32,000 bases of DNA from Candidatus Brocadia sp. (lineage in GTDB: Bacteria; Planctomycetota; Brocadiia; Brocadiales; Brocadiaceae), in NCBI GenBank assembly GCA_021646415.1, contig SOEU01000011.1, positions 73,385 to 105,384 of the forward strand, read 5' to 3'. Of the stretch, positions 5,791 through 26,465 are shown in pieces. The notes beneath the pieces are model-generated. The model searched no databases. It was not told where the DNA came from and was given only the letters and a program-made list of their open reading frames with translations. Both the position numbers and the translations under genes were made by a program. Position 1 is the stretch's first letter. Each line of letters opens with the position of its first letter.

Positions 5791-7269
5791 ATGAAATGGT
5801 TGAATTTTAAGCATCCGTTTTATTTGACAACTTTAATTTTATGCGGCTTTACCATAGTAGCTATTCCCCATGGTGTGATTGCAAAGGAGAAAAAAAACAA
5901 GGATAAAAAAAGCACTGTAACGGCAGAATGCGTGTTAAAGAAAATAACGACCATTCCTGGGCAGGAGTTAGTAGTCGAAAGGGGGAAGGGTGTTAATGTT
6001 ACGGTAGTGGTGAAATGCAAAGGTGATATTCCTGCCGCAGGCGTTACGGTTGAAGCTGCTACATTGAAAGGGAAAAAGGTCATTGAACTTTCTCCTATAA
6101 GTGCTGTAACAGACAAAGATGGCAAAGCAGTTTTCACCATTACAGGCAACAGAAAAACAGAAGAGGAACTTGCAGAGATTAAATTTACGGCAGAGAAGCT
6201 TGCCACAAAATTGGCGGTAAAGGTCAGAAGAACCGAATGTAAACCTGGAAATATCAAAATAGAACCCGCGAAGGAATTGGTACTTGAGCCCGGGAAAAGC
6301 AGTCAGATCACGGTAAAGGTGATATGCGAAAACGGTAGCCCTGCTGTGGATGCCAAGGTAGATGCACTTGTTCAGGTTGGCAGCGATAAGTTAGACATTT
6401 CATCATCGGCAGAATTAACCGACGCAAGCGGGAAGGCGGTCTTTACCGTAACGGGTATTCAGGAGACCAAAAAAGGGTCTGCCTCAATCAGGTTTATGAC
6501 CGGAGACCTTAAAGCGGAAGTGGATGTAAAAGTCAAATCAGTTGCAGGAGAGGAAGGCACAGAAACGACACAGTTAGTGCCAAAGGCAATACAAACTATT
6601 CCAGGGCAGGAGGTGACGGTTGCAAGAGGAAAAGATGTCAATGTCGTTGTAAAGGTGATGGGCAAAGGTAACATTCCTGCTGCCGGCGTTACCGTTGAAG
6701 CAGCTACACTGAAAGGGAAAAAGGCCATAGAACTTTCTCCTGTAAGTGCTGTAACAGACAAAGATGGCAAAGCAGTTTTTACCATTACGGGCAACAGAAA
6801 AACAGAAGAGGAACTTGCAGAGATTAAATTTACGGCAGAGAAGCTTGCCGCAAAATTGGCGGTAAAGGTCAGAAGAACCGAATGTAAGCCAGGAAGAATG
6901 AAGATAGAACCCGATCAGAAGGTAGTACTTGAACAGGGAAAGAGTAAGCAGGTCACGGTAAAGGTGATATGCGAAGACGGTAGCCCTGCTGTGGATGCCA
7001 AAGTGGATGCAATCGTCCAGGTTGGCAGTGGTAAGATAGACCTTTCGCCGTCCGCAGAATTAACCGACGCAAGTGGTAAGGCGGTCTTTACCGTAGCGGG
7101 TATTCAGGAAACCAAAAAAGAGCCAGCTACTATTAGGTTTATGACTGAAGACCTTAAAGCATACCTCAACGTAAAAGTTATACCAGTAACGGCAGAGATA
7201 ACACAACCAGAAGAGGCGACACCAAAAGAAATTGCAACTCCAAAAGAAGAGGCAACGCCTGAAAAGTAA
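5791..7269 (+). CDS. Secreted protein with four tandem bacterial Ig-like (Big-type) domains and a Pro/Glu/Thr-rich tail
   Basis: N-terminal signal/TM segment (FYLTTLILCGFTIVAIPHGVIA). Four homologous units of about 100 aa share the pattern EC..(I/K).P..ELV.E.GK...V.V.C..G.PA....V.A...TD..GKAVFT.TG...I.F....L.....VKV. C-terminal tail is EITQPEEATPKEIATPKEEATPEK. Confidence 0.75.
   Translation: MKWLNFKHPFYLTTLILCGFTIVAIPHGVIAKEKKNKDKKSTVTAECVLKKITTIPGQELVVERGKGVNVTVVVKCKGDIPAAGVTVEAATLKGKKVIELSPISAVTDKDGKAVFTITGNRKTEEELAEIKFTAEKLATKLAVKVRRTECKPGNIKIEPAKELVLEPGKSSQITVKVICENGSPAVDAKVDALVQVGSDKLDISSSAELTDASGKAVFTVTGIQETKKGSASIRFMTGDLKAEVDVKVKSVAGEEGTETTQLVPKAIQTIPGQEVTVARGKDVNVVVKVMGKGNIPAAGVTVEAATLKGKKAIELSPVSAVTDKDGKAVFTITGNRKTEEELAEIKFTAEKLAAKLAVKVRRTECKPGRMKIEPDQKVVLEQGKSKQVTVKVICEDGSPAVDAKVDAIVQVGSGKIDLSPSAELTDASGKAVFTVAGIQETKKEPATIRFMTEDLKAYLNVKVIPVTAEITQPEEATPKEIATPKEEATPEK
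5935..7200 (+). repeat. Two-copy tandem duplication (period 645 bp) inside the Ig-repeat gene
   Basis: attcctgc at 6028 recurs at 6673. In the roughly 217 nt compared by eye (6031-6247 vs 6676-6892) I count 13 mismatches. Each unit encodes two Ig-like domains. Confidence 0.85.
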
Positions 7270-7418
7270 CAACGCCGGAAGTACAGGTTACACCGTCGTG
7301 GTAATTTTTAGGGATTCATTTTCTTACGGAGAAAAAAGAGAGAAAGGTACGTGGATGAATATCTTGTTTCTTAGATAATGAAACAGGAAAGATTTTTTAG
7401 AGAAGAAAGGGAAGAACA

Positions 7419-8036
7419 ATGACTGCAATATTAAAAGAAGATATTTTGCGGGGGAAAAATAAGGAAACCTCCGGTAAAGAAAAAGTAGATAAAATAATGG
7501 ATACCATAGTTGAGTCAATAGAGGCACCACATCATGCAAAAATGGAGAGTGTAGAAAGTAAGGTAGCATCAGAATCAATAAAACCAACGGAAATGGAAGG
7601 TGCTGGAAAACAATATCTCTTTAGCAGTGAAATATTGATAGAAGGCGAAAACAAGTCCGACCTCGATGAGGTTAGGAGCAGGCTTCTAAAAGAATTGAAA
7701 CCCTCAGATGAAATAGAATCAATTATTGTGGATCGTATCGTTTCAAGTGTCTGGCGATTAAAACGATGCTTGAAAATTGAAAGCCAGATGATGGAGTATG
7801 AGACGTCATGCATTCAGGAATATGAGCAAGGATTTTTTAGAACCAGGAAAAGGACTGGCAAAGAACTGATACAATTAAAGGCATTAAAAATTATCGAAAA
7901 CAAAAACAGAATCGCTGAATTATCTAAATATGAAACAATGTTAGAAATGCAAATATATAAGGCATTGAGAGAATTGTCTAAATATAGACGACGAGAGGCG
8001 AGACAAGAGAAGAGGACGCTGAGAAGGGCTAAATAA
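7419..8036 (+). CDS. Hypothetical protein with an acidic N-terminus and a basic coiled-coil C-terminus
   Basis: 205-aa ORF with a purine-rich stretch (AAGGGAAG) upstream of the ATG. The segment SDEIESIIVDRIVSSVWRLKRCLKIES and the C-terminus KYRRREARQEKRTLRRAK match no family I can name. Confidence 0.5.
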   Translation: MTAILKEDILRGKNKETSGKEKVDKIMDTIVESIEAPHHAKMESVESKVASESIKPTEMEGAGKQYLFSSEILIEGENKSDLDEVRSRLLKELKPSDEIESIIVDRIVSSVWRLKRCLKIESQMMEYETSCIQEYEQGFFRTRKRTGKELIQLKALKIIENKNRIAELSKYETMLEMQIYKALRELSKYRRREARQEKRTLRRAK

Positions 8037-8123
8037 TCGTGAATGGGAAAATATTGGGAGGATTTTTGATATTGTAACATAATATACATTATCAGACGTT
8101 GTAAATTTATTGACAAAATATTA

Positions 8124-8152
8124 TTGACAATAGAAATTACGTCTGCTACTAT
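8124..8152 (+). promoter_or_regulatory. Candidate sigma70-type promoter of the ACP-to-radical-SAM operon
   Basis: TTGACA (8124-8129), 17-nt spacer, TACTAT (8147-8152). A second TTATTGACAA copy lies 14 bp upstream (8107-8116). The 7-bp inverted repeat CAGACGT (8093-8099) / ACGTCTG (8139-8145) brackets both boxes. Confidence 0.4.
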
Positions 8153-8212
8153 GTTGCCCTGAGTTTTAGCAACGATGGTTGTTTTATTGTTTTGAGCAGT
8201 TTATTATGGAGG

Positions 8213-8491
8213 ATGACGATTTTGAACGCTGAAGAAATTGAAAAAGGTGTAACCGCGATAGTCGCTGAGGTTACAGAATTAGATGAAAAAGAAATTTGGG
8301 ATAAAAGAGATGCAAATTTCTTTAAAGACCTCGAGATTGATTCCCTTTTGGCCTTAGAAATTCTTGCGCTTATTGAGAAGAAATTCAAGGTGCAAATCCC
8401 CGAAGAAAAGCTTGTTGATATTACATCCCTAAGTGCCACCATTGATTTAACAAAATCTGTTTTGGCAGAAAGCGGAAAACTTTCATCTTAA
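8213..8491 (+). CDS. Acyl carrier protein (specialised, operon-encoded)
   Basis: DANFFKDLEIDSLLALEILALIEKKFKVQIPEEKL carries the DSL phosphopantetheine-attachment serine in the normal helix-II context. The start is uncertain: the ORF-track start 8192 is TTG, ATG 8213 abuts GGAGG (8208-8212), and TTG 8222 has better 9-nt spacing. Confidence 0.85.
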   Translation: MTILNAEEIEKGVTAIVAEVTELDEKEIWDKRDANFFKDLEIDSLLALEILALIEKKFKVQIPEEKLVDITSLSATIDLTKSVLAESGKLSS

Positions 8492-8570
8492 AGCTCCAAA
8501 TAACAGGGTGAGAATTGTATATTGTGTTAGGTAATATTATTCTGATTAACGAGACGATGGGCTACAGTAA

Positions 8571-9026
8571 ATGATGCTTTTTGAGGAAATCCGATCTCTT
8601 CTTCCTCAAAAATATCCTTTTTTATTTATAGATAAAGCTATTGAGTTTGAAGAAGGAAAAAGAATTGTTTGTGTAAAAAATGTCTCAGGTAATGAACCAG
8701 TCTTTGTCGGACATTTCCCTGACTTTGCCATTATGCCCGGGGTTTTAATCATCGAGGCAATGGCACAGGCTTCTATCGTCCTGTTCAAGAAGAGCCTTCC
8801 CCCAAAAAATGACAGGGATACGGTTTTTTTATTGGCATCAGTAAATAACGCTCGGTTTACAAAACCCGTCTTTCCTGGCGACCAACTCTTCATAGAAATC
8901 ATTGTAGAAAAAATTGTGTCTAAGGGAGCTATTGTTCAAGCTGCAGTAACGGCTGATGAAAAAGCGGTTGCTAAGGCAACGCTGACTTTTGGAATTGCAG
9001 ATAAAAGCGCATTAATATCGAGTTGA
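8571..9026 (+). CDS. fabZ: 3-hydroxyacyl-ACP dehydratase FabZ
   Basis: [17 protein letters not shown]...[26 protein letters not shown] has the hot-dog-fold FabZ signature, with the catalytic His (GHFP) and Glu (IIEAMAQ) present. Confidence 0.9.
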
Positions 9027-9039
9027 TAAAATTATATTT

Positions 9040-10266
9040 ATGAATAAACGTGTGGTTATAACAGGCGTAGGTATGATCACCCCTATCGGATCGGGAAAGG
9101 ACACATTCTGGAGTGCCCTAATTACTGGGGTATCTGGTGTTGATGATGTGACGTGTATTGACACTTCCGGATATAAGGTACATAAAGGATGCGAAGTAAA
9201 AAACTTCAAGTATTCCGATTATATAAAAAATGGCATCCTTAAAAAAATTGGTAAAGGTTCGCAATTTGCGATTGCGGCAACAAAGCTTGCTCTGGATGAT
9301 GCCAAGCTTAACATCCGTGCCGTTGACTTAGAAAGGCTTGGAGTTTCTGTTGGAACTACTGCGGGAGAAATACAAATCCTGGAAAAAGTCAATTATATAC
9401 GACACAAAGAGGGAGAAGATAAAGTAGACCCCGATTTGTTTCTCATGCATCCATGTAATAATATTCCTGCTAACATTGCCATTGAGTTTGGTTTCAAAGG
9501 TCCCAATACTATTATTCCCACAGCGTGCGCAGCGGGTAATTATGCAATTGGGTATGCTTATGATTTGATTAAGTTCGGACGGGTGGCTATGATGGTTGCT
9601 GGCGGTTCAGACCCTTTTTCGAAAGTTGCCTATACAGGATTTGCCAGATTGGGCGCCATCGCTCCAGAGATATGTCAACCATTTGACAAAAACAGAAAAG
9701 GCATGATGGTTGGTGAAGGCGCAGGCATGCTTCTCTTAGAATCACTTGATCATGCGATGGAGAGGAATGCAAATATTTATGCCGAAATCATTGGTTACGG
9801 CCTTAGCTGTGACGCCTATCATATAACTATCCCTCATCCCGATGGGGAAGGCGTTATCTCCGCTATGAAAAAAGCCTTAAAATGCGCAAATCTAAAACCA
9901 GAAGACGTCCAGTATGTCAGTGCCCATGGAACAGGAACTCCTGCTAATGACAAAGCCGAAACGATCTCTATTAAAAAGGTATTTGGGGATAAACCTGAGC
10001 ATCTCGCAATTAGTTCAATAAAATCAATGATTGGTCATACCATGGGTGCTGCCAGTGCAATAGAAGCCATTACCTGTGCATTGGTTGTCCAAAACGATAT
10101 CATTCCCCCGACGATTAATTATGAAACACCGGATCCTGAATGTGATCTGGATTATGTACCTAATGTAGCAAGAAAACAAAAGGTAAATATCGCACTGAAT
10201 AACGCTCATGCATTTGGTGGCAATAATAGCTGTTTAGTCGTTAAAAAATTTACAGGCAGAACGTGA
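9040..10266 (+). CDS. fabF: Beta-ketoacyl-ACP synthase II (FabF-type), catalytic triad intact
   Basis: [15 protein letters not shown]; active-site Cys in [11 protein letters not shown]; His in [14 protein letters not shown]; His in [13 protein letters not shown]; C-terminal [14 protein letters not shown]. Confidence 0.92.
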
Positions 10267-10319
10267 AAAAACAAACAGTTCTCCGGAACTGAATTAGGCG
10301 CCTATAACAGAGGTTTGTA

Positions 10320-11561
10320 ATGGAAAAAACGAGGATAGTTGTTACCGGTGTTTCGGTTATTTCATCCATTGGAAGTAATAAGGAAGTTTTTTGGAATAAT
10401 TTAACCAATGGTGTATCAGGCATTAAACCCATTACCTTGTTTGATGTAAGTAAATTTCATAGTAAACAAGCCGGTGAGATTTCTGATTTTGACGCAAAGG
10501 TCTACCTTGGCCAAAAGGGAATCCGCCATATTGATAGGACATCCCTTCTTGTATCATCTGCGACGGTTCTTGCCATTAAGGATGCCAATTTAGAGAATAA
10601 TACCTACAGTGGTGATGAATTAGGTATTGTCGTTGGTTCTACGTATGGCAGTATTGATAGTATCAGTTCTTTCGATTTCCAGTCTTTGCGTGAAGGTCCT
10701 AATTATGTGAATCCCATGGATTTTCCTAATACCGTGCTGAATGCACCAGCAAGCCGTGCCTCTATTTTTTGTAAGGCAACAGGGCTGAATACAACCATTT
10801 CAAATGGTGTAACAAGCAGCATCGATGCGATTATTTATGCCTCTGATTTCCTTCGGATGGGTCGGGTAAAGGCTGTAGTTGCCGGAGGCGTGCATGGATT
10901 AACTCATGACATCTTTTGGGGAGCACATAATTCTAAAATATTATCGGGAAGTAAGGATGGGACTCAGGAAATTTGTGCACCCTTTGACAAAAGACGCAAT
11001 GGGATGGTCATTGGTGAAGCATCGGCATTAGTCATCCTCGAAACCTTAGAAGATGCGCTCCGGAGAAATGCACATATTTATGCAGAAATCAAGGGTTACG
11101 GAACCGCATTTGACCCTGAAATGGCTGTTAGCAGGGATTATCAGATAGACGGCAACAAAAGGGCTATCATGGGTGCCATTCATGATGCCAGTCTGACGTT
11201 GAATGATATTTCTTACATATCTGCCAATGCTTATTCTGGTGTTTATGGCGATGCAATGGAAACCAGAGTTATTAAAGAAGTCTTCGGCATGAGAGCAAAT
11301 CTTATTCCTGTTACCGCAATAAAATCTATGACAGGTGAATGTTATGATGCCTCGGGAGCATTGCAGACAATAGCCGCAGCAATGTCCATGAACACACACA
11401 CAGTTCCACCGACAATTAACCTTAAGGAACGTGACCCTGAGTGTGATTTAGATTATGTTGCCAATATCGCCAGGGTCTTACCAGTCAAAAATGTCCTAAT
11501 CAACACCTTTTCACGATTGGGAAATAATTCGGCCTTAATTATCTCCAAATACAAGCAGTAA
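10320..11561 (+). CDS. Ketosynthase paralog lacking the Cys-His-His triad (chain-length-factor/KS-beta-like)
   Basis: Full-length thiolase-fold KS similarity to the upstream FabF (TRIVVTGVSVISSIG..., [34 protein letters not shown]). In ungapped local alignment [11 protein letters not shown] aligns with SNGVTSSIDAI (Cys to Val), SAHGTGTP with SANAYSGV (His to Asn) and [11 protein letters not shown] with KSMTGECYDAS (His to Glu). Confidence 0.85.
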   Translation: MEKTRIVVTGVSVISSIGSNKEVFWNNLTNGVSGIKPITLFDVSKFHSKQAGEISDFDAKVYLGQKGIRHIDRTSLLVSSATVLAIKDANLENNTYSGDELGIVVGSTYGSIDSISSFDFQSLREGPNYVNPMDFPNTVLNAPASRASIFCKATGLNTTISNGVTSSIDAIIYASDFLRMGRVKAVVAGGVHGLTHDIFWGAHNSKILSGSKDGTQEICAPFDKRRNGMVIGEASALVILETLEDALRRNAHIYAEIKGYGTAFDPEMAVSRDYQIDGNKRAIMGAIHDASLTLNDISYISANAYSGVYGDAMETRVIKEVFGMRANLIPVTAIKSMTGECYDASGALQTIAAAMSMNTHTVPPTINLKERDPECDLDYVANIARVLPVKNVLINTFSRLGNNSALIISKYKQ

Positions 11562-11564
11562 TTC

Positions 11565-13025
11565 ATGATATCTTCCAACCGGTGCATTCAATCCACTAAA
11601 AAGGATAGTCTTTATCCTTCTTATGATGCAATTGTGATTGGTGCAGGTATTGCTGGTCTGGTTTGCGGTGCATTCCTCGCCAGGATCGGGAAAAAGGTAC
11701 TCATTGTGGAGCAGCATTCCATCCCTGGCGGTTATTGCACTTCATTTAAAAGGAAAGGTTTCAATTTCGATGCGGCAGTTCACCATATTGGGGGTTGTGG
11801 AAAATGGGGTATTGTAGGGCGTTGCCTTAAAATTCTGGAGATAGAGCTGGATTTTTATCCTCTCGATCCAATGGACCATTTGATTTTCCCCAACCTTACC
11901 ATAGAAATTCCAGCCGATTTGGACGAATATATCATACGTTTACAGGGTCGCTACCCATCGGAAAAGGATAGCGTCAAGCATTTCTTTCAGGATTTTTTAA
12001 AGCTCTATCGCGCTACATTCAATAATGAGAAAAGCCAAATTATAGATAAATATAAAAATCAGACGTATATTGAAATGTTGAATGCTTTTTTGAAAAATGA
12101 CGAGCTCAAGATGATACTTTCTGGTCAATGGGGTTATATAGGGCTCCCCCCTACCCAAGCTTCTGCTATAGGCATGTGCCAGATGATGATCAATTATCTC
12201 AAAGACGGCGCCTTTTTTCCTGCGGGTGGTACGCAAGAGTTTGCTAATGCAATTTTTAAGAAATTTATTGATTTTGGTGGGCATATTATGCTATCATCCA
12301 AAGCCGAAAAAATTTTATGTACCGGCAAAACCGCCGTTGGTGTAAAATTGCAGGAAGGGAAAGAGATATCCTCGGACGTTGTTGTTTCAAACATTGATGC
12401 CCGGCAGACCTTTTTCGGATTATTAGAAGGTAAATCAGATACACCATTCCTTCAAAGAATTAGAGAAATGAAGGAAAGTTGTTCCTTTTGCCTTTTATAC
12501 TTGGGAGTAGGTGAAGGCATAGATTTAAGTGAATTAAAAAGAGGATTTTATCATACTGCCACAGATGCAAGATATGTAAATGACGAGTGGATGTATGTGT
12601 CGGTTCCAACGAAGATAAGCCCTGCACTTGCCCCGCCAAACAAGCAGATAATCTCTGCGGTTGTTTACATGGAGAAAGAAAAATATAATGATATTACTGA
12701 TTGGAAATCTTTTAAAGAAAGTATGATATCAGGTACAATAAATCGACTGGAAGAATACGTCCCTGATATAAAAAAACATATCGAAGTAAAAGATGCGGCT
12801 ACCCCGAAAACTCTGGAGCGGTACACGTTAAATACCAATGGAGCCGCTTACGGCTGGGAGGTCAGTGTGGATCAAATATGGGATAATAGACTTCCCCATC
12901 AGACGCCGATTGATAATCTGTATTTGACTGGTCATTGGACAAGGCCTGGTCCTGGAATTTGTGCTGTTGTTTCTTCTGGATGGGGTGTAGCAAATTTAAT
13001 TATGGAGAAGGAGAATTGGAGGTAA
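11565..13025 (+). CDS. Phytoene-desaturase-family (CrtI-like) FAD-dependent oxidoreductase
   Basis: N-terminal dinucleotide-binding fold YDAIVIGAGIAGLVCGAFLARIGKKVLIVEQHSIPGGYCTSF. About 486 aa, with the C-terminal LYLTGHWTRPGPGI motif typical of CrtI/amine-oxidase-fold enzymes. It starts 3 nt after the KS-like stop. Confidence 0.85.
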   Translation: MISSNRCIQSTKKDSLYPSYDAIVIGAGIAGLVCGAFLARIGKKVLIVEQHSIPGGYCTSFKRKGFNFDAAVHHIGGCGKWGIVGRCLKILEIELDFYPLDPMDHLIFPNLTIEIPADLDEYIIRLQGRYPSEKDSVKHFFQDFLKLYRATFNNEKSQIIDKYKNQTYIEMLNAFLKNDELKMILSGQWGYIGLPPTQASAIGMCQMMINYLKDGAFFPAGGTQEFANAIFKKFIDFGGHIMLSSKAEKILCTGKTAVGVKLQEGKEISSDVVVSNIDARQTFFGLLEGKSDTPFLQRIREMKESCSFCLLYLGVGEGIDLSELKRGFYHTATDARYVNDEWMYVSVPTKISPALAPPNKQIISAVVYMEKEKYNDITDWKSFKESMISGTINRLEEYVPDIKKHIEVKDAATPKTLERYTLNTNGAAYGWEVSVDQIWDNRLPHQTPIDNLYLTGHWTRPGPGICAVVSSGWGVANLIMEKENWR

Positions 13026-13029
13026 ATTT

Positions 13030-14490
13030 ATGAAAAGAAAAATGATGTTGATTAACCCACACAAGCCGGGTAGGCATGGCGAAGAGAGTATTACCGTAAT
13101 CGTCCAGATGCCTTTGAATCTTGCTTATGTTGCCGCCCTTACGCCAGGCGATTGGGAATTTGACGTTATTGACGAAAATCTCGAATTGGCAATAGATGAT
13201 AACGGTGAAATTACCTTTAAACCCGTAGATCTTGTGTGTATAACAGCAGTTACCTATCAATCTCCCAGGGCCTACACGATTGCTACTGCCTGTAGGAAAA
13301 AGGGTATGACCGTAATCATGGGTGGAATACATGCGTCTGTAATGCCTGAGGAAGCCATAAAGTACGTCGATGCTGTTTTTGTGGGTGAGGCAGAGGAAGT
13401 ATGGCCACAGGTAATCAAAGATTTTGAAGACGGAAAGCTCAAGAAGATTTATCAGGGAGGATTGCCTCCCCTCAGCCTGATGAAAAAGGTATATCCTAAT
13501 CGGGAGCTCATGAAGAAAAAATATGACTATAAATTTTCTTCCATTGTCACAACGAAGGGATGCCCGAACTATTGCGATTTCTGCAGCGTCCCCACATTCC
13601 AGGGAAGAAAATTCAGGGAGAGACCTTATGAAGATGTTCTCGCAGAGATGGCCGCAACAGATTATAAGGGTTTGATGCTGGCAGAGGATAATTTTTACGG
13701 TCATGGGAAAAAGTCAAACGAGAGGGCACGGGATCTTTTTAAGGGCATGGTGGAGCGCGGCATCCACAAAGATTGGCTAGGATTTACTGCTTTAAATATT
13801 TCTCAGGATCCTGAGACATTAAATTATATGGCAAAGAGTGGCTGCTTTGGTATGCTTATCGGTATCGAATCTACCAATGAGGCCGTTTTACAGAAGATGA
13901 ATAAGCGGGTAAACCTTAAGCTGGGTACAGATAGTTACTTTGATTGTATCCAAAAGATACACGATGCCGGCCTGGTTGTTTGGGGATCAGTAGTGTTTGG
14001 AGCCGATGGAGATGATAAAGACTCCTTTAAAAGAATGACTGAGTTCATATTGGAAAATAATATTGATATTCTTACCTTTGGTATTAACTGCCCATTCCCC
14101 AAGACTCAACTTTATGCCAGACTGGATTCAGAAAAGAGGATCTTCAGGAAAAATTATCCAGAAGATTGGCAATACTATGATACTGCTCATGTGGTTCATC
14201 GTTTCGTAGACATGACGTTAGAAGGCTTTATCGAAGGTATGCAATATGTTTATGATCATGTTTACGCAGGTGATAACCTAAGAACACGTTTCAGAAATTC
14301 TATTAAGACAACGAAAAATCCGAGAAATTCCATGTTTGCATTCAGGGTAGGTTCTGACTGGAAACAGGTCTTTGAACAGGTCTTGCAGAATTTAAAAGAG
14401 TTGTATGACTCAGGTGATTATTATAAAGATTATTACAAATCAAGTGCGGTACCTGTTTCAAAACCCATAATGGAAGCAGTTACTACATAA
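13030..14490 (+). CDS. B12-binding-domain radical SAM enzyme (class B)
   Basis: N-terminal Rossmann-like cobalamin-domain pattern (LNLAYVAALTP...VCITAVTYQSPRAYTIATACRKKGMTVIMGGIHAS...VFVGEAE). Radical SAM cluster motif TKGCPNYCDFCSV (CxxxCxxC). GGAGG RBS 7 nt upstream. It starts 4 nt after the oxidoreductase stop. Confidence 0.9.
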   Translation: MKRKMMLINPHKPGRHGEESITVIVQMPLNLAYVAALTPGDWEFDVIDENLELAIDDNGEITFKPVDLVCITAVTYQSPRAYTIATACRKKGMTVIMGGIHASVMPEEAIKYVDAVFVGEAEEVWPQVIKDFEDGKLKKIYQGGLPPLSLMKKVYPNRELMKKKYDYKFSSIVTTKGCPNYCDFCSVPTFQGRKFRERPYEDVLAEMAATDYKGLMLAEDNFYGHGKKSNERARDLFKGMVERGIHKDWLGFTALNISQDPETLNYMAKSGCFGMLIGIESTNEAVLQKMNKRVNLKLGTDSYFDCIQKIHDAGLVVWGSVVFGADGDDKDSFKRMTEFILENNIDILTFGINCPFPKTQLYARLDSEKRIFRKNYPEDWQYYDTAHVVHRFVDMTLEGFIEGMQYVYDHVYAGDNLRTRFRNSIKTTKNPRNSMFAFRVGSDWKQVFEQVLQNLKELYDSGDYYKDYYKSSAVPVSKPIMEAVTT

Positions 14491-14526
14491 TACAAACAAA
14501 TTATGTATTCCTGAATAAGAAGTTTA

Positions 14527-14572
14527 CAAAGGCACATCAATTTTTATGCATTTGATGTGCCTTTGTGTTATG
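14527..14572 (+). terminator. Intrinsic terminator closing the six-gene operon
   Basis: Perfect 14-bp stem CAAAGGCACATCAA (14527-14540) / TTGATGTGCCTTTG (14552-14565), an 11-nt loop, followed by a T-containing tail TGTGTTATGG. Confidence 0.7.
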
Positions 14573-14597
14573 GATTTTATGTTCGGTGGGGAATTGA

Positions 14598-15023
14598 GTG
14601 AAAGATATTCTGGACCGAATTAAAAATTTTGTCAAACGAGTAGAACTCTTTTATGTGGCAACTTCTAATCAAAAGGGAGAGGTACATCTTGCTGTAGCGA
14701 AGGATTTGATTTTTTTACCTGATACGGAACACATAGCTTTTAAGGCGTGGTTTTGCAAAAAAACGATTGAAAATATTCAAAAAAACCCGAATATATCCAT
14801 TGCCATTTATGATGCAAAGTCTGATACGGGTTACCAAATTATTGGTAAGGCAATTTCAAAGAGTGTCGTTGCTGTTTTGAATGGTTACGCACCTGAGTTA
14901 GAAATGGTTGAAAAAGAATATCCGCAAGAAGAGTATCAACTAAAGATAAAGATAATAAATATTATGGAACTACATAGAGTAACACATTCTGATAAGTATC
15001 TTTTAAGTAATGGATCTTTATAG
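14598..15023 (+). CDS. Pyridoxamine-5'-phosphate-oxidase-like (split-barrel flavin-binding) small protein
   Basis: GTG start. VELFYVATSNQKGEVHLAVA...IAFKAWFCKKTIENIQKNPNISIAIYD...GYQIIGKA resembles the PNPOx/general-stress-26 fold pattern. The family assignment is tentative. Confidence 0.5.
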   Translation: MKDILDRIKNFVKRVELFYVATSNQKGEVHLAVAKDLIFLPDTEHIAFKAWFCKKTIENIQKNPNISIAIYDAKSDTGYQIIGKAISKSVVAVLNGYAPELEMVEKEYPQEEYQLKIKIINIMELHRVTHSDKYLLSNGSL

Positions 15024-15213
15024 GAATTTGAAAAAGAGTGATACTTATTGATCCATTTACAGAAATCGTTACAGTCTGTCATCATGGCAGAAGGGAAGCT
15101 GGATATTATAGCTTTGATGAAGAGTTTGAGTTGGTTGCTGGAGTTTCAATAAAATTAAAGGAACTATATTAAATTTGCATAACAAAATTTAGCTCAAAAA
15201 GGAGGTAAAAGTC

Positions 15214-15342
15214 ATGATAGGTAAATTATTATCTCTGTCTATGGAAAAATCAGTTATCCCGGATATTAGCCCAAAAGCGATTATGGTTATCGCCATCGCA
15301 CTTATATTCGTTATTCTATTTACCTGGAAAAAGGAGGGGTAA
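15214..15342 (+). CDS. Micro-ORF (42 aa) for a single-pass membrane peptide, translationally coupled to lpdA
   Basis: AAGGAGG (15199-15205) lies 8 nt before the ATG at 15214. Product is MIGKLLSLSMEKSVIPDISPKAIMVIAIALIFVILFTWKKEG, with one clear TM helix. Its TAA (15340-15342) directly abuts the lpdA TTG start (15343), and its last codons form the lpdA RBS (AAGGAGGGG). Absent from the ORF track (<60 aa). Confidence 0.4.
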   Translation: MIGKLLSLSMEKSVIPDISPKAIMVIAIALIFVILFTWKKEG

Positions 15343-16776
15343 TTGCCTGAAGGAAACTCTACCTTTGATCTTACAATCATTGGTGGCGGGCCAGGTGGTT
15401 ATGTAGCGGCTATAAAAGCTGCTCAGCTAGGAATAAAAACCGCTCTCGTCGAAAGGGATAAGGTTGGTGGTACGTGTTTACATAAGGGTTGCATTCCAAC
15501 AAAGGTACTCCTCCATTCCGCGGACCTTTACATGCAATTTCTCAAGGCAAATGAATTCGGGATCGTCGTTGATAAAATAGGAATTAATTATCCACAATTT
15601 CATCGGCGAAAGGAAGCAGTTGTTAAACGACTATTTCAAGGGACGCAATTTCTCCTCAAAAAAAATGGTGTAGAAGTTTTTTCTGGTGAAGGACAGCTCA
15701 CATCATCAAACAACGTCTTAATCAAAAAAAATGGAACGGACGTTGGTAAAATAACTACAAAAAATGTTATCGTAGCTACGGGGTCGGTTCCGCTCATTCC
15801 GGTTAATATCCCATGCGACGGAAAATACGTGCTTACCAGTGATGATGTTTTACTATGGGAAGAAATCCCGAAATCTATTATCATTGCAGGTGGCGGTGCT
15901 GTCGGAGTGGAATTCGCCCACCTTTTTAATAGCCTTGGAACTAAGGTAACCATTATAGAACTCCTGGATGATATCCTTCCTGCCGAAGATAAGGAAATTA
16001 GTACCACTTTAAGAAAAATTTTCAATAAGAGAGGCATCGATGTCCTGACAAATACCTCTTTAGAAACAGTCATAATCGATAATGGCGTTCGTGTAAAAAT
16101 AAGCAGAAAAAACAATACATCTCCCCCCCCTGCGAAAACTGAAAATAAAGAATTTATAAAAGCGGATCGTTTACTCCTCTCATTGGGCAGAATGCCTGCC
16201 TTTGCAGATATTGGGATAGAAAAATTGTCATTACATTTTAAAGGAAAATATCTGCAAACCAATGAGGTTATGGAAACCAATCTAAGCGGACTCTTTGCTA
16301 TTGGAGACATTAAAGGCCCCCCCCTTCTTGCCCACAAGGCTTCGCACGAAGGGGTACTGGCTGTTTCTCACATCGCTGGCAAAGAAACCACCCCGATAAA
16401 TTATCAGAATATACCGAGAGTGACGTACTGCCTTCCACAGGTAGCAAGTATAGGACTCACACAAGAAGAGGCAGAAAAAAGAGAATACAAAATAAGAGTA
16501 GGAAAATTTCCACTCATTGCTAACAGTAAAGCCATTATTGACGGTGAATATGAAGATGGATTTGTAAAAATCGTTTCTGATGAAAAATACGGTGAGATAT
16601 TAGGAATGCATGCCATAGGACCAAACGTGGGTGAATTGATGTGGGGTATGTCACTTGCAACTATTCTGGAAGGGACGGCCATTGAGTTAAGGAATACTAT
16701 ATTTCCCCACCCCACTCTCTCCGAGGCCATTTCAGAAGCTGCCCATGCAGTTGTTGATAAACCAATACATTTATAA
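15343..16776 (+). CDS. lpdA: Dihydrolipoyl dehydrogenase (E3)
   Basis: FDLTIIGGGPGGYVAAIKAAQLG; redox-active disulfide GGTCLHKGCIPTK; second NAD-binding GGGAVGVEFA; C-terminal HPTLSEA interface motif. TTG start. Confidence 0.92.
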   Translation: MPEGNSTFDLTIIGGGPGGYVAAIKAAQLGIKTALVERDKVGGTCLHKGCIPTKVLLHSADLYMQFLKANEFGIVVDKIGINYPQFHRRKEAVVKRLFQGTQFLLKKNGVEVFSGEGQLTSSNNVLIKKNGTDVGKITTKNVIVATGSVPLIPVNIPCDGKYVLTSDDVLLWEEIPKSIIIAGGGAVGVEFAHLFNSLGTKVTIIELLDDILPAEDKEISTTLRKIFNKRGIDVLTNTSLETVIIDNGVRVKISRKNNTSPPPAKTENKEFIKADRLLLSLGRMPAFADIGIEKLSLHFKGKYLQTNEVMETNLSGLFAIGDIKGPPLLAHKASHEGVLAVSHIAGKETTPINYQNIPRVTYCLPQVASIGLTQEEAEKREYKIRVGKFPLIANSKAIIDGEYEDGFVKIVSDEKYGEILGMHAIGPNVGELMWGMSLATILEGTAIELRNTIFPHPTLSEAISEAAHAVVDKPIHL

Positions 16777-19299: not shown

Positions 19300-19773
19300 C
19301 TACACTACCATCCCAATAATGACTCCTTCAAATACGAGTTTTCCATTTACCACACCTTGAGTATCAAAGACGGCCCTGCGTGAACGCAATTCCTTGTTTT
19401 TTGCAATGAGAATAAGTTTGTCGCCAGGGATAACTTTTCCACGGAATTTTACTTTATCGATACCACCAAAGCCAAGGAAGCGGTCGTCCTGTGTGGTTTT
19501 TTTGTAATAATAGGTACATAACTGTGCGGCCGCTTCAAGCATAATTACCCCAGGCATCAGGGGACGGCCAGGAATGTGTCCCTGCACCCAAAATTCACTA
19601 TTCGAAATGTCTTTATAACCTATTATAATTTTATTTTCAGGATCAAATTTTATAATGCCGCTCAATTGTTCCATCTCATATCGGTGCGGTATGACGGCAC
19701 GAATAGCCTCGATACCCACTGTCGGTTTATTTAAATCCAAATTGTTTAAATCAGTTAAAATGTCCTGTGGCAT
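19300..19773 (-). CDS. Second FabZ/FabA-like 3-hydroxyacyl-ACP dehydratase
   Basis: IPHRYEMEQL...SEFWVQGHIPGRPLMPGVIMLEAAAQ has the catalytic His and Glu positions conserved. The ORF-track start at 19818 is GTG; I prefer the ATG at 19773 (MPQDILTDL...), but the start is uncertain. Confidence 0.85.
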   Translation of the reverse strand: MPQDILTDLNNLDLNKPTVGIEAIRAVIPHRYEMEQLSGIIKFDPENKIIIGYKDISNSEFWVQGHIPGRPLMPGVIMLEAAAQLCTYYYKKTTQDDRFLGFGGIDKVKFRGKVIPGDKLILIAKNKELRSRRAVFDTQGVVNGKLVFEGVIIGMVV

Positions 19774-19911
19774 ATGATACACGAGAAAATTATTTGTAAA
19801 AACCGGCAAATAAAGCACACTATTTTGTTTGATTCAAAATATTAATAATGATTCGTTATCGTGTCAATGAAAATCTCATAGAGCAAGAAAAACATTCAGC
19901 AAAAAATATAA

Positions 19912-22154: not shown

Positions 22155-22880
22155 CTAGTAACTCCAATTCTCGTGGCGCAAAGGACTTTTATTCAACTCC
22201 TCTTTGTAAAATCTCCACTTTAGCAAATACGTATCCATGTAGGCGATAAATCTTTCATTATGATGACGTTCTAACAGATGCACCATTTCATGCACAATGA
22301 TATATTCAATACATTCTTTTGATTTTTTGGCCAGTTCAAGATTTAACCAGATCCTTTTTGCCTCTCTGTTACACGTACCCCATTTCGTCTTCATCTTTTT
22401 TATGGCATACTCAACACCGTCCAGTCTCATCTTTTTCTTCCAACAAGCAATATATTCGGGAACAATTTCCTTCAGTTTCTGGCGATACCATTCTTCCAAA
22501 ACAACCCGTTTTTTTTCTATGCTTGCGCCAGGTCTTACATACAATTCAAGAACGCTGTGCTTTAATATAACTTTTGGAGCAGCGTTATGCTCAAAAACTT
22601 TCAGCAGGTATCGCTTGCCCAGATAGTAATGACTTTCCTGTGTTAAAAATTCCCTTGGGGTTTCTCGTTCCTGACTGAGCAGTTTTTGCTGCTGTTTCTT
22701 TATCCAACTTAATTTTGATAGAGCGAAAACCCTAATAGTTTCAAGGTCCATGCGTAAGGGAGCGGAAATTCTTACCCTCCCTATTGGCGGATAAACACCC
22801 AGATGAATATTCTTAATATCCTTTTGAATTACATCAATAGGTAAATTACTCAATTGGATTTGCTGCATATCAATACTCAT
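22155..22880 (-). CDS. YgjP-like/DUF45 zinc metallopeptidase (M48-like), the usual type I R-M companion
   Basis: C-terminal HExxH in IIVHEMVHLLERHHNERF, preceded by KWGTCN. It overlaps the hsdR stop by 11 nt. Confidence 0.8.
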   Translation of the reverse strand: MSIDMQQIQLSNLPIDVIQKDIKNIHLGVYPPIGRVRISAPLRMDLETIRVFALSKLSWIKKQQQKLLSQERETPREFLTQESHYYLGKRYLLKVFEHNAAPKVILKHSVLELYVRPGASIEKKRVVLEEWYRQKLKEIVPEYIACWKKKMRLDGVEYAIKKMKTKWGTCNREAKRIWLNLELAKKSKECIEYIIVHEMVHLLERHHNERFIAYMDTYLLKWRFYKEELNKSPLRHENWSY

Positions 22881-25800
22881 TCTGCTGTTTTATGATCGGA
22901 AAAATACGCTCAACTTCATTGGCATCCTTTAAAATATCATAAAGCGCTTTTTTAATTTCTCTTTCCTTAGCATCATTACCACGCCAGTCAGCCTTCTTTA
23001 CATATCTGACGGCTTCATCCATTACAACGGCCAATTCCTCATCGTGATTGAGGTTGTTGTATAATGCCCGTCTGGCGTTACTGTTTTTTATACTTGCCGG
23101 CAAATTATCTCTTGCGGGATTATTTACCTTCTTTGCCAATTCAGCGATCTTCTTTAAATATGCTTCATAATTGATGGCATTTGTCTTTCTCTCTTTAACA
23201 ATTTCATGTAAAAGCTTTGACATTTCTTCAAAGTAAGCAGGGTCTATCAAATGCTCCTGTATGATTTTCTTCCGCACGTTGTTTTCAATAGTTTCCGCCA
23301 CTGCTTCTTTATTGCGTTTAATCCCTTCGGGCAAACTGTTGATGGCATCAGCAATGCCGGAATTAACGAGTAAATCCAGCAACGACATATTCGCAAAAGG
23401 AGAAATTGTCCTGGGTTCCTCCGCCTGTATGTAAGTGTCAATTAAATGCCGCATATCAGCTTCGTAGGTCTTCATATCGAGCGTTTCGCCGCTGGCATTC
23501 CTGATCTCTTCCCTGAGTTTCAAATAATAATCCACTTTCTTTTTGATATCTGCAATCTCTGCCTGGGTATAGCCTGCTTCTTCCATTTCCGCCGCGATAT
23601 TGGCATAAGCCCTTATGAGTGCCACCGTTTGTTTATAAAGAGACGTTCTCTTTACCTCATTGGACTTCAGGTCTTCTTCGTTTTCCGGATCACCACAGAA
23701 GTAGCGGATGTACGCCAGTGAGTCTTTTGGCGGCGCTACCGGTTCGCATAATAAGGCCATTTCTTCCAAGGCATTATCCAGCCGTTCCCTGCCTTTCTCC
23801 AGGCGGTCTTTTAATAACACATCCACGTCCCCTTTCTCAAACGTATCATAATCCAGTTCCGACGTGTACACAGCAACGGCATTTTCAACCTTTCTGAACA
23901 GGTCTTTATAATCAACAATGTAACCAAACTCCTTGTCATCGCTGTCCAGCCGGTTGACCCTGCAAATAGCCTGGAATAAGCCATGATCCTGCATGCTTTT
24001 GTCGATATAGAGATAGGTGCAGGGTGGCGCATCAAAACCGGTAAGGAGTTTATCAACCACGACAAGCAGTTTCATATTTGACGGCTCTTTTATAAACTTT
24101 TCCTTCGCCTCATCTTCGTATTTCTCGGTGGGCTTGTTTCCCAGCAACGATTTATAGATGTTATAGATATATTCCTTTTCCGTCTCTGTATTTGCGCCGG
24201 TATCTTCCGTTGTTATATCCCTTGTTGATGGATTGTATGAGGTAACAATGGCGCATTTGCCTTTCAACTCGGTAGTTTGAAACAGTTCAAAATACCTGCA
24301 TGCTTCATAAATACTTGATGCCACCAGAATGGCATTTCCCCTGTCCGAGTTCAAACGCGGTTTTACATTAAAATCAAACACGATGTCGCTTACGATCTTT
24401 TCCAGTCTGGAACGGGAACTCAGCACCTTCTGCATCGTACCCCATTTCTTCTTGAGCTCAGATTTTTGAAAGTCGTTCAAACCACGGGTCTTGGCTTCAA
24501 ACCATTCATCTATCTTTTGAGATGATGATATTTTCTGGTCGATATCACGGGCTTCGTACACCAAATCAAGCACCACTTCATCCGCAACCGCCTCGTTGAA
24601 CTTATAGGTATGAATGTATTTACCAAATACCTCAAGACTGGTTTGCTTATCTTGTTTTAAGAGTGGGGTTCCGGTAAAGCCAATAAAGATGGCATTTTTT
24701 AAAATTGCCTTCATCGTTTTGTGCAGCTTGCCCGATTGGGTACGGTGACACTCATCTACAAAGATAAATAATTCACCAACGGTATGGATGGGACTCCTTT
24801 TTAATTCTTCAATGAATGCATCAAAATTATCGACTCCCTTCCTGCCAAATTTATGCACCAGCGAACACAGCATGCGGGGCAATGCCTTGCCCAGTTGGTC
24901 CATCAGGTCTTTACCATTGCGGGTACGCACCATGCTTTCCCCAACATCGGTAAATATGCGTTCTATCTGTTTATCCAACTCGTCACGGTCGGTAATAATT
25001 ACCACGCGTGCATGGGGGTTGTTTTCAAGAATCCATTTGGCAAGCCACACCATTACCAGGCTTTTACCGCTGCCCTGCGTATGCCAGATAATTCCACCCT
25101 CTCGCCTTTTCGCATGCTCCTGTGCGGCCTTGACGCCAAAGTATTGATGCGGACGGCACAATTTTTTCATGCCGCCGTCAAACAGGGTAAAGTCGTAGAT
25201 GATTTCAAGAAACCTTCTTTTATCGCACAGTTTTACAAGGTATTTATCGAAGAGATTTTCTCCCTCGCCTTCTTCCTTCCACGTCAGAAAATATTTTTCA
25301 GGTGTCCCAATAGTACCATAGCGGAGCCCCTGGGTATCATTCCCGGCAAACACCCATTGAATGGTGGTAAAGAAGGACTGGATGAATTCTTTCTGCTGGT
25401 TGACAATATTCTGCCGGATACCGTCGCCTATGGAAATCGTGCTTCGTTTCAGTTCCAGCACCCCAAGTGCTACGCCGTTTACGTAGAGCACAATATCAGG
25501 GCGTTTTTCGTGATTGCCCCGGATAGTAACCTCTTCGGCAATGGCAAATTCGTTTTCAAGCGGGTGCTTCCAGTCAATAAGTTCAACGGTCTCATAGTTT
25601 TCACCGGCTTCTGCCTTGACTTTTACGCCGTAACGCAGCAGTTGATATACCTTTTTATTGGCGCTGTATAGACCATCGTTCAGGTTATTAGCCGCCTTGC
25701 CGAGTTCATATAAGGCTTTGTTGATAAGGGTATTATTGTAGCGTTTTCTCTCACGTAAATATTTACGAAGGATTGCTTCTTCAATATTGCTGTTGTTCTG

Positions 25801-25902
25801 GCGGTCTTCCCAATTGCCCAGGTAGTTATAGCCCAATTCTTTATGGAACAAGGCAATTATCCTGTTTTGGGTTTCACGTTCTTTTTTGCCGATGTTGCTC
25901 AT
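22870..25902 (-). CDS. hsdR: Type I restriction enzyme, R (endonuclease/translocase) subunit
   Basis: PD-(D/E)xK nuclease region RPDIVLYVNGVALGVLELKRS. SF2 helicase motif I HTQGSGKSLVMV, motif II (DEAH-type) FVDECHRTQ, later motifs TGTPL and QAICRVNR. 1010 aa. Confidence 0.95.
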   Translation of the reverse strand: MSNIGKKERETQNRIIALFHKELGYNYLGNWEDRQNNSNIEEAILRKYLRERKRYNNTLINKALYELGKAANNLNDGLYSANKKVYQLLRYGVKVKAEAGENYETVELIDWKHPLENEFAIAEEVTIRGNHEKRPDIVLYVNGVALGVLELKRSTISIGDGIRQNIVNQQKEFIQSFFTTIQWVFAGNDTQGLRYGTIGTPEKYFLTWKEEGEGENLFDKYLVKLCDKRRFLEIIYDFTLFDGGMKKLCRPHQYFGVKAAQEHAKRREGGIIWHTQGSGKSLVMVWLAKWILENNPHARVVIITDRDELDKQIERIFTDVGESMVRTRNGKDLMDQLGKALPRMLCSLVHKFGRKGVDNFDAFIEELKRSPIHTVGELFIFVDECHRTQSGKLHKTMKAILKNAIFIGFTGTPLLKQDKQTSLEVFGKYIHTYKFNEAVADEVVLDLVYEARDIDQKISSSQKIDEWFEAKTRGLNDFQKSELKKKWGTMQKVLSSRSRLEKIVSDIVFDFNVKPRLNSDRGNAILVASSIYEACRYFELFQTTELKGKCAIVTSYNPSTRDITTEDTGANTETEKEYIYNIYKSLLGNKPTEKYEDEAKEKFIKEPSNMKLLVVVDKLLTGFDAPPCTYLYIDKSMQDHGLFQAICRVNRLDSDDKEFGYIVDYKDLFRKVENAVAVYTSELDYDTFEKGDVDVLLKDRLEKGRERLDNALEEMALLCEPVAPPKDSLAYIRYFCGDPENEEDLKSNEVKRTSLYKQTVALIRAYANIAAEMEEAGYTQAEIADIKKKVDYYLKLREEIRNASGETLDMKTYEADMRHLIDTYIQAEEPRTISPFANMSLLDLLVNSGIADAINSLPEGIKRNKEAVAETIENNVRKKIIQEHLIDPAYFEEMSKLLHEIVKERKTNAINYEAYLKKIAELAKKVNNPARDNLPASIKNSNARRALYNNLNHDEELAVVMDEAVRYVKKADWRGNDAKEREIKKALYDILKDANEVERIFPIIKQQNEY

Positions 25903-26465
25903 GGTATTTCCTGTTTAAAGAATGTATCTTTTTCCCATTTTTCGGGATTGGTTCTGATATAATTTGCAATTCGGTGGTATTCATCCTCGTCGCGGATGAT
26001 GTGGTCATGAAAACGGGATTGCCACACAGGTATTTTGGGCGTATTACGAAATTCGTTGATGCGTTTGGTTGCAGATGATTTGAATCCCCCCCCAAATGAT
26101 GAAATGGATCGGATCGAACGATGGGCAATTCCCGTGTTCGTGGGCGTTTGTAGAGACGCACGGCCGTGCGTCTGTACGGATGTGGTTGGGTCGGAATTTT
26201 CAATTCGCACAATGGCGTGCAGATGGTTGGGCATCAATACAAATGCATCGCAAAATAATTCCGCCCGAATTTGAAACGATTGTTCCCATTCCCGCAAAAC
26301 GATTTCGCCCATGGGCGATGGTTGCATTTGTCCGTCGCGAATTTTGCCAAAGACACATTCATGATGTGCGGTACAAATGGTGATGAAATAACACCCGCGC
26401 CATGAATAATCCCACCACGGCGCCCGTGCCGATGGTATGCGGTATCTATTTTTGAATTTTTCCAT
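25899..26465 (-). CDS. IS200/RAYT-like Y1 HUH transposase-family protein embedded in the R-M operon
   Basis: YFITICT, HUH motif in FVLMPNHLHAIVRI, and WQSRFHDHIIRDEDEYHRIANYIRTNPEKW (catalytic-Tyr helix). The start codon shares nt 26465 with the hsdS stop, and its stop overlaps the hsdR ATG (ATGA, 25899-25902). Confidence 0.8.
   Translation of the reverse strand: MEKFKNRYRIPSARAPWWDYSWRGCYFITICTAHHECVFGKIRDGQMQPSPMGEIVLREWEQSFQIRAELFCDAFVLMPNHLHAIVRIENSDPTTSVQTHGRASLQTPTNTGIAHRSIRSISSFGGGFKSSATKRINEFRNTPKIPVWQSRFHDHIIRDEDEYHRIANYIRTNPEKWEKDTFFKQEIP

Follow-up and report, generated by a model that had tools for sequence, protein, structure and literature searches.

The question raised by this locus is what a ketosynthase (KS) that has lost its whole catalytic triad may do beside an intact one. 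The window, that is the entire stretch of 32,000 nucleotides from Candidatus Brocadia sp. analyzed here (contig SOEU01000011.1, positions 73,385 to 105,384), carries two adjacent KS genes, and the open reading frame (ORF) in question is the second, at window positions 10320-11561. An earlier note, made from the raw sequence, had read the two as a KS and a chain-length factor (CLF), with the second protein as a non-condensing partner that shapes the acyl pocket or chain length of the first, which would suit an operon whose product is not an ordinary straight-chain acyl group. By its sequence the ORF is the Candidatus Brocadia orthologue of amxFabFmut (KustE3606 / Broful02170). Its product is very probably a folded, catalytically dead FabF homologue, which forms an obligate heterodimer with amxFabF2, the product of the 9040-10266 gene, and has a CLF-like role in tunnel formation and chain length.

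Both proteins contain the N- and C-terminal ketoacyl-synt Pfam domains. They are paralogous along their whole length, as had been claimed, since gapped BLASTP aligns them over 407 residues with 35% identity and 6 gaps (E 6e-81). The same alignment recovers all three active-site segments on which the earlier note relied, including KSMTGECYDAS. In HMMER alignments the Cys and both His residues of B. subtilis FabF (PDB 4LS5) correspond to V164, N303 and E340 of the second protein and to C163, H296 and H333 of the first, and a MAFFT alignment of 141 related sequences places the triad in identical columns. Cys or His was restored at the triad positions of the second protein in no gapped or profile alignment made. 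The reported replacement of Cys-His-His by Val-Asn-Glu, and the retention of the triad upstream, are therefore both borne out. The second protein does not belong to the canonical FabF family (TIGR03150) on either score or triad: it reaches 326.3 bits against the NCBIfam fabF equivalog (cut-off 493.75) and 318.5 bits against the KAS II subfamily model NF005589 (cut-off 387). The first protein passes NF005589 with 452.8 bits and misses the fabF equivalog with 471 bits.

It is important to compare these proteins with those of known structure. The product of 10320-11561 aligns end-to-end with chain C of PDB 9S5H (835.7 bits, E 4.6e-251), while the runner-up PDB match has 256 bits; the 9040 product matches chain B of the same entry with 856.3 bits. 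In the printed alignments both are more than 90% identical to the two chains of 9S5H/9S5I, and B. fulgida KKO19127.1 shares a 90% cluster with the second protein. The two sequences are identical to the Candidatus Brocadia sp. records MCF6155655.1 (10320 product) and MCF6155654.1 (9040 product), which come from a metagenome-assembled genome and a contig of 119.6 kb. The residue pattern of amxFabFmut, with Cys changed to Val or Thr and both His residues to Asn, Cys or Glu, is present, and so is its operon context: amxACP (the acyl carrier protein, ACP), amxFabZ, amxFabF2, amxFabFmut, a phytoene-desaturase-like gene (PDH) and a B12-binding radical SAM gene. Near-identical solved structures were found for four of the operon proteins (both KS, ACP and FabZ). 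These matches and the exact Candidatus Brocadia sp. records identify the six genes as "Cluster I" of anammox bacteria (kuste3603-3608), which is the foremost candidate for the making of ladderane lipids. The pair in the window is thus orthologous to amxFabF2/amxFabFmut, together amxFabFhet (Broful02171/02170, KustE3605/3606; PDB 9S5H, 9S5I), with which it shares the triad replacement, Phe135/Thr138/Val139, the six-gene operon and the genus. The window proteins differ from amxFabFhet of B. fulgida and K. stuttgartiensis by species-level substitutions only.

The finding is already known: a paper of 2009 gave the substitutions, and one of 2026 the structure and mechanism of the heterodimer. Rattray et al. 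(2009, PMC2649909) listed Val163, Asn298, Tyr300, Gly302, Lys328, Glu333, Gln342 and Arg392 for Kuste3606 in their Table 2 and judged the protein incapable of normal FabF chemistry. All of these residues are matched in the window protein, as V164, N303, Y305, G307, K335, E340, Q349 and R399. Granatino et al. (bioRxiv 10.64898/2026.05.19.726425) found that amxFabF2 and amxFabFmut of K. stuttgartiensis and B. fulgida co-purify as a heterodimer. Either protein alone was inactive, and the two together decarboxylated malonyl-amxACP and formed acetoacetyl-ACP. For the B. fulgida heterodimer these authors obtained a crystal structure at 2.6 Å, and for its complex with crosslinked C8-amxACP one at 2.1 Å. 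The substrate tunnel runs from the active site of amxFabF2 and is partly lined by Phe135, Thr138 and Val139 of amxFabFmut, while amxACP touches both subunits. The V139G and F135G/V139G mutants had an altered C6/C8/C16 preference in a crosslinking assay. They termed the pair a KS/CLF-like heterodimer. Their text puts the mutant gene "just upstream" of amxFabF2; it lies downstream of amxFabF2 in the window and in all 16 colinear anammox loci described below, consistent with the KustE3605/3606 numbering.

The heterodimer, the joint activity and the mutant effects were established with orthologues more than 90% identical to the window proteins, for which the same behavior is to be expected. In the proposed mechanism the dead subunit would pair obligately with the product of the gene directly 5', and the only working Cys-His-His site is that of amxFabF2. 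The acyl tunnel would start at this site, and the helix-loop-helix of the dead subunit (about residues 110-143, including Phe135, Thr138 and Val139) would form part of its wall. The dead subunit would also contact the dedicated carrier amxACP and would set the accepted chain lengths, favoring C6-C8 over C16 as in the crosslinking assays. It would be required for any activity of the pair. Its role would then be that of the CLF in type II polyketide synthases (PKS). The physiological reaction may be a short-chain (C6-C8) elongation, which would feed ladderane synthesis. The presumed product of the operon is a ladderane lipid, or the short linear part of one. The earlier proposal of a non-condensing partner that shapes the acyl pocket is thus supported by the work on the orthologues and by the presence of Phe135 and Val139 in the window protein.

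The distribution of conserved residues was assessed in 125 orthologues. The tunnel loop of the window protein, GPNYVNPMDFPNTVLNAP (residues 126-143), contains Phe135, Thr138 and Val139, all three of which are invariant in 126 sequences. In this loop 72% of the sites are invariant, compared with 26% overall. The former Cys position is occupied by Val in 87 orthologues, Thr in 29, Ile in 6 and Glu in 3, and the former first His position by Asn in 63 and Cys in 62; two deeper anammox lineages have a Glu-Asn-Asp triad. Across anammox lineages the identity of amxFabFmut ranges from 62 to 93%. The tunnel loop is far better conserved than the dead triad, which is a new comparative result. Because the loop is so largely invariant while the triad sites vary, the pattern is that expected if the tunnel and interface loop, as opposed to catalysis, is under selection.

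Relatives were searched exhaustively in 1.84 billion representatives. The nearest ones form a large set of degenerate KS proteins that resemble those of fatty acid synthase (FAS) and have an x-x-Glu signature (FSE, FNE, ESE, ISE, QSE and others). They include fusions of about 800 residues that join an intact KS (CHH) to a degenerate one. The nearest degenerate partners outside anammox, from Omnitrophota, Nitrospirota and other uncultured phyla, are 41-50% identical to the window protein. Like it, they contain the VNPxxFPNTV loop and have at the second His site an acidic residue that is usually Glu, and they adjoin an active KS, ACP, FabZ and often a PDH-like gene, as in the window. These clusters differ in their order (KSmut-FabG-ACP-FabZ-KS, KSmut being the dead KS), mostly lack the B12 radical SAM gene, and usually have Phe at the Cys site.

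A dead KS, mostly Phe-x-Glu, was observed in dozens of metagenome-assembled genomes (MAGs) from Omnitrophota, Nitrospirota/Thermodesulfovibrionales and other groups (loci L020-L081 of our set of related loci; for example L033, positions 7989-16246, from Omnitrophota on a 1.57 Mb contig), often together with a fatty-acyl reductase. A colinear ACP-FabZ-KS-KSmut-PDH-radical SAM order, with proteins 46-62% identical to those of the window, was also seen in high-GC contigs that are not from anammox organisms (L051, L001, L034, L067). L051 (6012-16567) lies on a 1.8 Mb contig of an "uncultured delta proteobacterium" (CAWFFN010000005.1) and has a GC content of 70% at the locus. L001 (644-12079; Logan SRR32147499) has a GC content of 56.5%, and the triad of its dead partner is Glu-Gly-Glu. 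The high-GC clusters carry two extra B12 radical SAM paralogues and another KS pair. The cluster has been called unique to ladderane producers (Granatino et al.), and similar but non-identical clusters were noted in Desulfotalea and Geobacter (Rattray et al. 2009).

In a neighbor-joining tree made without bootstrap, all degenerate partners but one fall in one clade and most active partners in another. The branching is mirrored in both: anammox sequences and those from the 56-70% GC non-anammox contigs come first, and Omnitrophota and Nitrospirota follow. The two window KS proteins, 35% identical to each other, are each 41-60% identical to their counterparts in non-anammox organisms. The mirrored topology and these higher identities point to a KS/dead-KS pair that predates anammox and has been passed on or transferred as a unit. 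A Scalinduaceae MAG contains a second, more distant locus with radical SAM, KS and dead KS (L074, 5049-9218), the last with the pattern Phe-Asn-Glu. Since this recalls Kuste2805, which has the same pattern (Rattray et al. 2009), it appears that a KS/dead-KS pair can occur more than once in anammox genomes. A KS with Val-His-His (P0054; L002, 372-1604, ENA ERZ27247924) was considered as an evolutionary intermediate, rejected and left out of use. It joins an amxFabFmut-like N-terminal half to a C-terminal half that resembles an active KS, and its gene lies on a 2.5 kb MEGAHIT contig, where ACP and PDH-like genes come next. An assembly chimera with its junction at the conserved IYAEI is the most likely explanation, and a real recombinant is less likely.

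Several points weigh against the role proposed above. The link between Cluster I and ladderanes is putative and unproven. In vitro, elongation past acetoacetyl-ACP was not seen, the chain-length data derive from a non-physiological crosslinking reaction, and the Scalindua amxFabFmut alone crystallized as a homodimer with a disordered helix-loop-helix (Granatino et al.). The preprint's negative/positive electrostatic asymmetry, offered for the selectivity of the heterodimer, was not reproduced by a net-charge count for the helix-loop-helix (108-142) and the partner helix (194-210) of both proteins and 141 relatives. In this crude sequence count the helix-loop-helix has a charge of -3 in both KS, and the partner helix one of +2 in KS1 (9040 product) but of 0 in KS2 (10320 product). 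Moreover, three residues around the dead site, Lys335, Glu340 and Gln349, are invariant in all 125 orthologues, more than a purely passive pocket would account for.

These three residues might, together with a separate tunnel that leads to them, be a retained binding site, which could for example accept another acyl chain or a partly cyclised one, or a partner enzyme such as the PDH-like or radical SAM protein. The module of KS, dead KS and PDH, in some lineages with radical SAM, may in addition be an ancient system for modified lipids that has been shared horizontally. We regard this combined proposal as rather unlikely; if it were true, the chemistry of Cluster I would not be confined to ladderane producers.

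The same invariant residues could be taken to indicate that the protein is an enzyme with a different chemistry of its own, for example one that recruits a separately made ladderane moiety or couples it to a short acyl chain. Such coupling was proposed for Kuste3606 in 2009 (Rattray et al., PMC2649909). The ORF is intact and strongly conserved, as the 62-93% identity across anammox indicates, and the crystal has another tunnel, in which polyethylene glycol was bound and which runs to the mutated site (Granatino et al.). However, the residues replacing Cys and the first His vary by genus, which is unexpected for a new catalytic center, and most orthologues have no nucleophile at the Cys site. 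In addition, amxFabFmut alone is inactive, its tunnel has no access to the catalytic triad, and the coupling idea was rejected by the authors of the preprint. Because of the variable replacements and the inactivity of the isolated subunit, independent catalysis is very unlikely, and the role as a dead partner of amxFabF2 is preferred.

The CLFs of aromatic PKS have Gln at the Cys position and are associated with decarboxylative priming. It could be supposed that the window protein is such a classical CLF (KS-beta), or an aryl-polyene KS partner, acquired from a cluster of that kind. The logic of an active KS beside an adjacently encoded KS-fold protein without the nucleophilic Cys is indeed shared with the actinorhodin KS-alpha/CLF (PDB 1TQY). 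However, the window protein has Val164 at the Cys position, a site that is highly variable in the wider family, and the remark in the earlier note that this departs from the Gln of classical CLFs was apt. It scores 256 bits with B. subtilis FabF, 152 with the actinorhodin KS and 138 with the actinorhodin CLF. Among the best 60 PDB matches of the family profile no solved CLF chain occurs, and all are FabF, FabB or KS-alpha. The nearest relatives, as described, are FAS-like degenerate KS proteins. Because its FabF scores exceed those with solved CLFs, the protein lies outside the lineage of characterized PKS CLFs and nearer to FabF, although it would be CLF-like in its working. The genetic setting also differs: the two KS genes are 53 nucleotides apart, unlike the overlapping actinorhodin genes, and the operon has FabZ, PDH-like and radical SAM genes, while cyclases and aromatases are not among its Pfam annotations.

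The partner of the actinorhodin type helps to build the acyl/polyketide tunnel and influences chain length (Granatino et al.). The pair also resembles Iga11/Iga12 of the highly reducing type II PKS for ishigamide (PDB 6KXD-F), a KS/CLF pair that handles reduced, fatty-acid-like chains. Iga11 is the closest structural neighbor of amxFabF2 (Granatino et al.), and it (6KXD_A) gives 335 bits with the 9040 product, a point in favor of PKS ancestry. Iga12 is absent from the best 60 PDB matches of both the dead subunit and its family profile, and the product and tailoring enzymes of the ishigamide system differ. On account of the missing Gln and the sequence affiliation among solved structures, membership in the classical CLF family fails, and acquisition from such a cluster is highly improbable.

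A decaying, functionless duplicate, as the loss of all three catalytic residues might suggest, is excluded for practical purposes because the ORF is full-length without frameshift, it is kept beside its partner in every anammox locus examined, its loop is largely invariant, the degenerate lineage predates anammox and follows the phylogeny of the partner, and both subunits are needed in vitro, both homologs being expressed according to the preprint. The dead partner can also be compared with the human mitochondrial ketosynthase (OXSM; PDB 2IWY). In OXSM a Leu at the position equivalent to Val139 restricts longer substrates (Granatino et al.), a similar means of limiting chains to short lengths; unlike amxFabFhet, OXSM is a homodimer with two active sites and no dead subunit.

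The features of the operon are presented in Table 1.

Table 1. Positions of the Cluster I genes and associated sequence signals in the window.
Feature	Window position	Strand	Remarks
Promoter-like site, TTGACA-17-TACTAT with TG	8124-8152	+	Candidate operon promoter only; shortly 5' of ACP gene; consensus match 10/12
amxACP orthologue (anammox-specific acyl carrier protein)	8213-8491	+	Pfam PP-binding; likely start ATG 8213, mechanical ORF from TTG 8192
amxFabZ orthologue (3-hydroxyacyl-ACP dehydratase variant)	8571-9026	+	Pfam FabA; NCBIfam FabZ NF000582, 149 bits (cut-off 113); PDB 8AYD, 263 bits
amxFabF2 orthologue, active KS subunit	9040-10266	+	408 aa; Pfam KS N and C domains; Cys163/His296/His333 intact
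Perfect hairpin, 16 nt, CAGTTC-TCCG-GAACTG	10276-10291		From minus-strand terminator scan; inside the gap between the KS genes
amxFabFmut orthologue	10320-11561	+	ATG start, 413 aa; KS fold; Val164/Asn303/Glu340 instead of Cys/His/His
Phytoene-desaturase-like FAD amine-oxidase family protein (PDH of Cluster I)	11565-13025	+	Pfam Amino_oxidase, NAD_binding_8
B12-binding radical SAM enzyme of Cluster I	13030-14490	+	Pfam B12-binding, Radical_SAM

In genome collections, 16 anammox loci have the six genes in colinear order; they belong to Brocadia, Jettenia, Loosdrechtia, Kuenenia, and Scalindua-type and deep-branching lineages, the latter of 52% GC. The amxACP orthologue matches PDB 7AUF with 152 bits and chain E of 9S5I with 146 bits, in alignments that begin at residue 12-15 of the long ORF. 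The PDH-like gene starts 3 nucleotides past the stop codon of the dead KS gene; its product gives 166 bits against the NCBIfam model crtI_fam, under the cut-off of 238. The promoter-like site is the best consensus match on the + strand within 7200-15500. It is weak evidence for a promoter, because the total of 29 matches in this region is not above that in shuffled sequences (24.4 +/- 5.5). Terminator counts over the same region were also not above those in shuffles.

Several genes close to the operon were noted. Immediately 5' of it lies a gene for a 205-residue protein without Pfam match (7419-8036, +), whose homologues, of 50-70% identity, are likewise placed in loci of Brocadia, Jettenia and Loosdrechtia (L003, L005, L006, L008, L009, L013). 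On the other side, between the radical SAM gene and lpdA, is an ORF with a pyridoxamine-phosphate-oxidase (PNPOx-like) fold (14598-15023, +). It sits in the lowest-GC kilobase of the window (34.7%), and no counterpart was found in 82 related loci, where lpdA is directly 3' of the radical SAM gene. This ORF was probably inserted recently and would not belong to the conserved operon. LpdA, a dihydrolipoyl dehydrogenase (15343-16776, +), is encoded 3' of Cluster I in loci of Brocadia, Jettenia and Kuenenia. Just 5' of the related KS cluster, four loci of Omnitrophota (L029, L033, L073, L078) encode Lpd, an enzyme of the LipB/LplA type and a small lipoyl protein. A link to lipoate by way of octanoyl-ACP, prompted by the C6-C8 preference, was considered and dropped, lipoate genes being present in only 4 of about 60 non-anammox loci with a helix-turn-helix gene intervening. 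The adjacency of Lpd to the KS clusters is restricted to certain lineages and may be coincidental. About 5 kb 3' of the operon a second FabZ-like dehydratase is encoded (19300-19818, -), which is extended by about 35 residues at the N-terminus and has a weak ApeI-like match; homologues are found at the corresponding place in loci of Brocadia, Jettenia, Loosdrechtia and Kuenenia (L003, L005, L008, L009, L010).

Elsewhere in the window, a Cas1 homologue (868-1752, +) has a Pfam match that begins at profile position 45. Neither a Cas2 gene nor a CRISPR array was found across the window, and the gene is a solo or remnant Cas1. A secreted protein of 492 residues with the bacterial Ig-like domain Big_1 (5791-7269, +) consists of two halves, each about 230 residues long and nearly identical to the other, and its C-terminus has a short 18-nucleotide tandem repeat (7209-7256) that encodes a tail rich in Pro, Glu, Thr and Ala. 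A type I restriction-modification system occupies 22155-30027 (-), with hsdM at 27613-30027, hsdS at 26465-27622 and hsdR at 22870-25902. Between hsdS and hsdR there is an unannotated ORF of 188 residues (25899-26465, -), and downstream of hsdR comes the gene of a YgjP-like metallopeptidase (22155-22880, -). Rfam and tRNA scans across the window found nothing.

The assembly of ladderane lipids in anammox bacteria is a long-standing open problem, for which Cluster I is the leading candidate, and the dead-ketosynthase pair is among the few parts of this cluster understood structurally. The window contributes one more Brocadia orthologue, which does not in itself move the field; the earlier note had arrived from raw sequence at a hypothesis that matches the experimental confirmation. 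As far as the sequences can tell, the new elements are the conservation of the tunnel loop, the affiliation nearer to FabF, and the mirrored topologies of active and dead partners that reach non-anammox phyla. These comparative results, namely selection on the tunnel loop, co-diversification of the partners and the clusters outside anammox, may aid the choice of a tractable non-anammox host.

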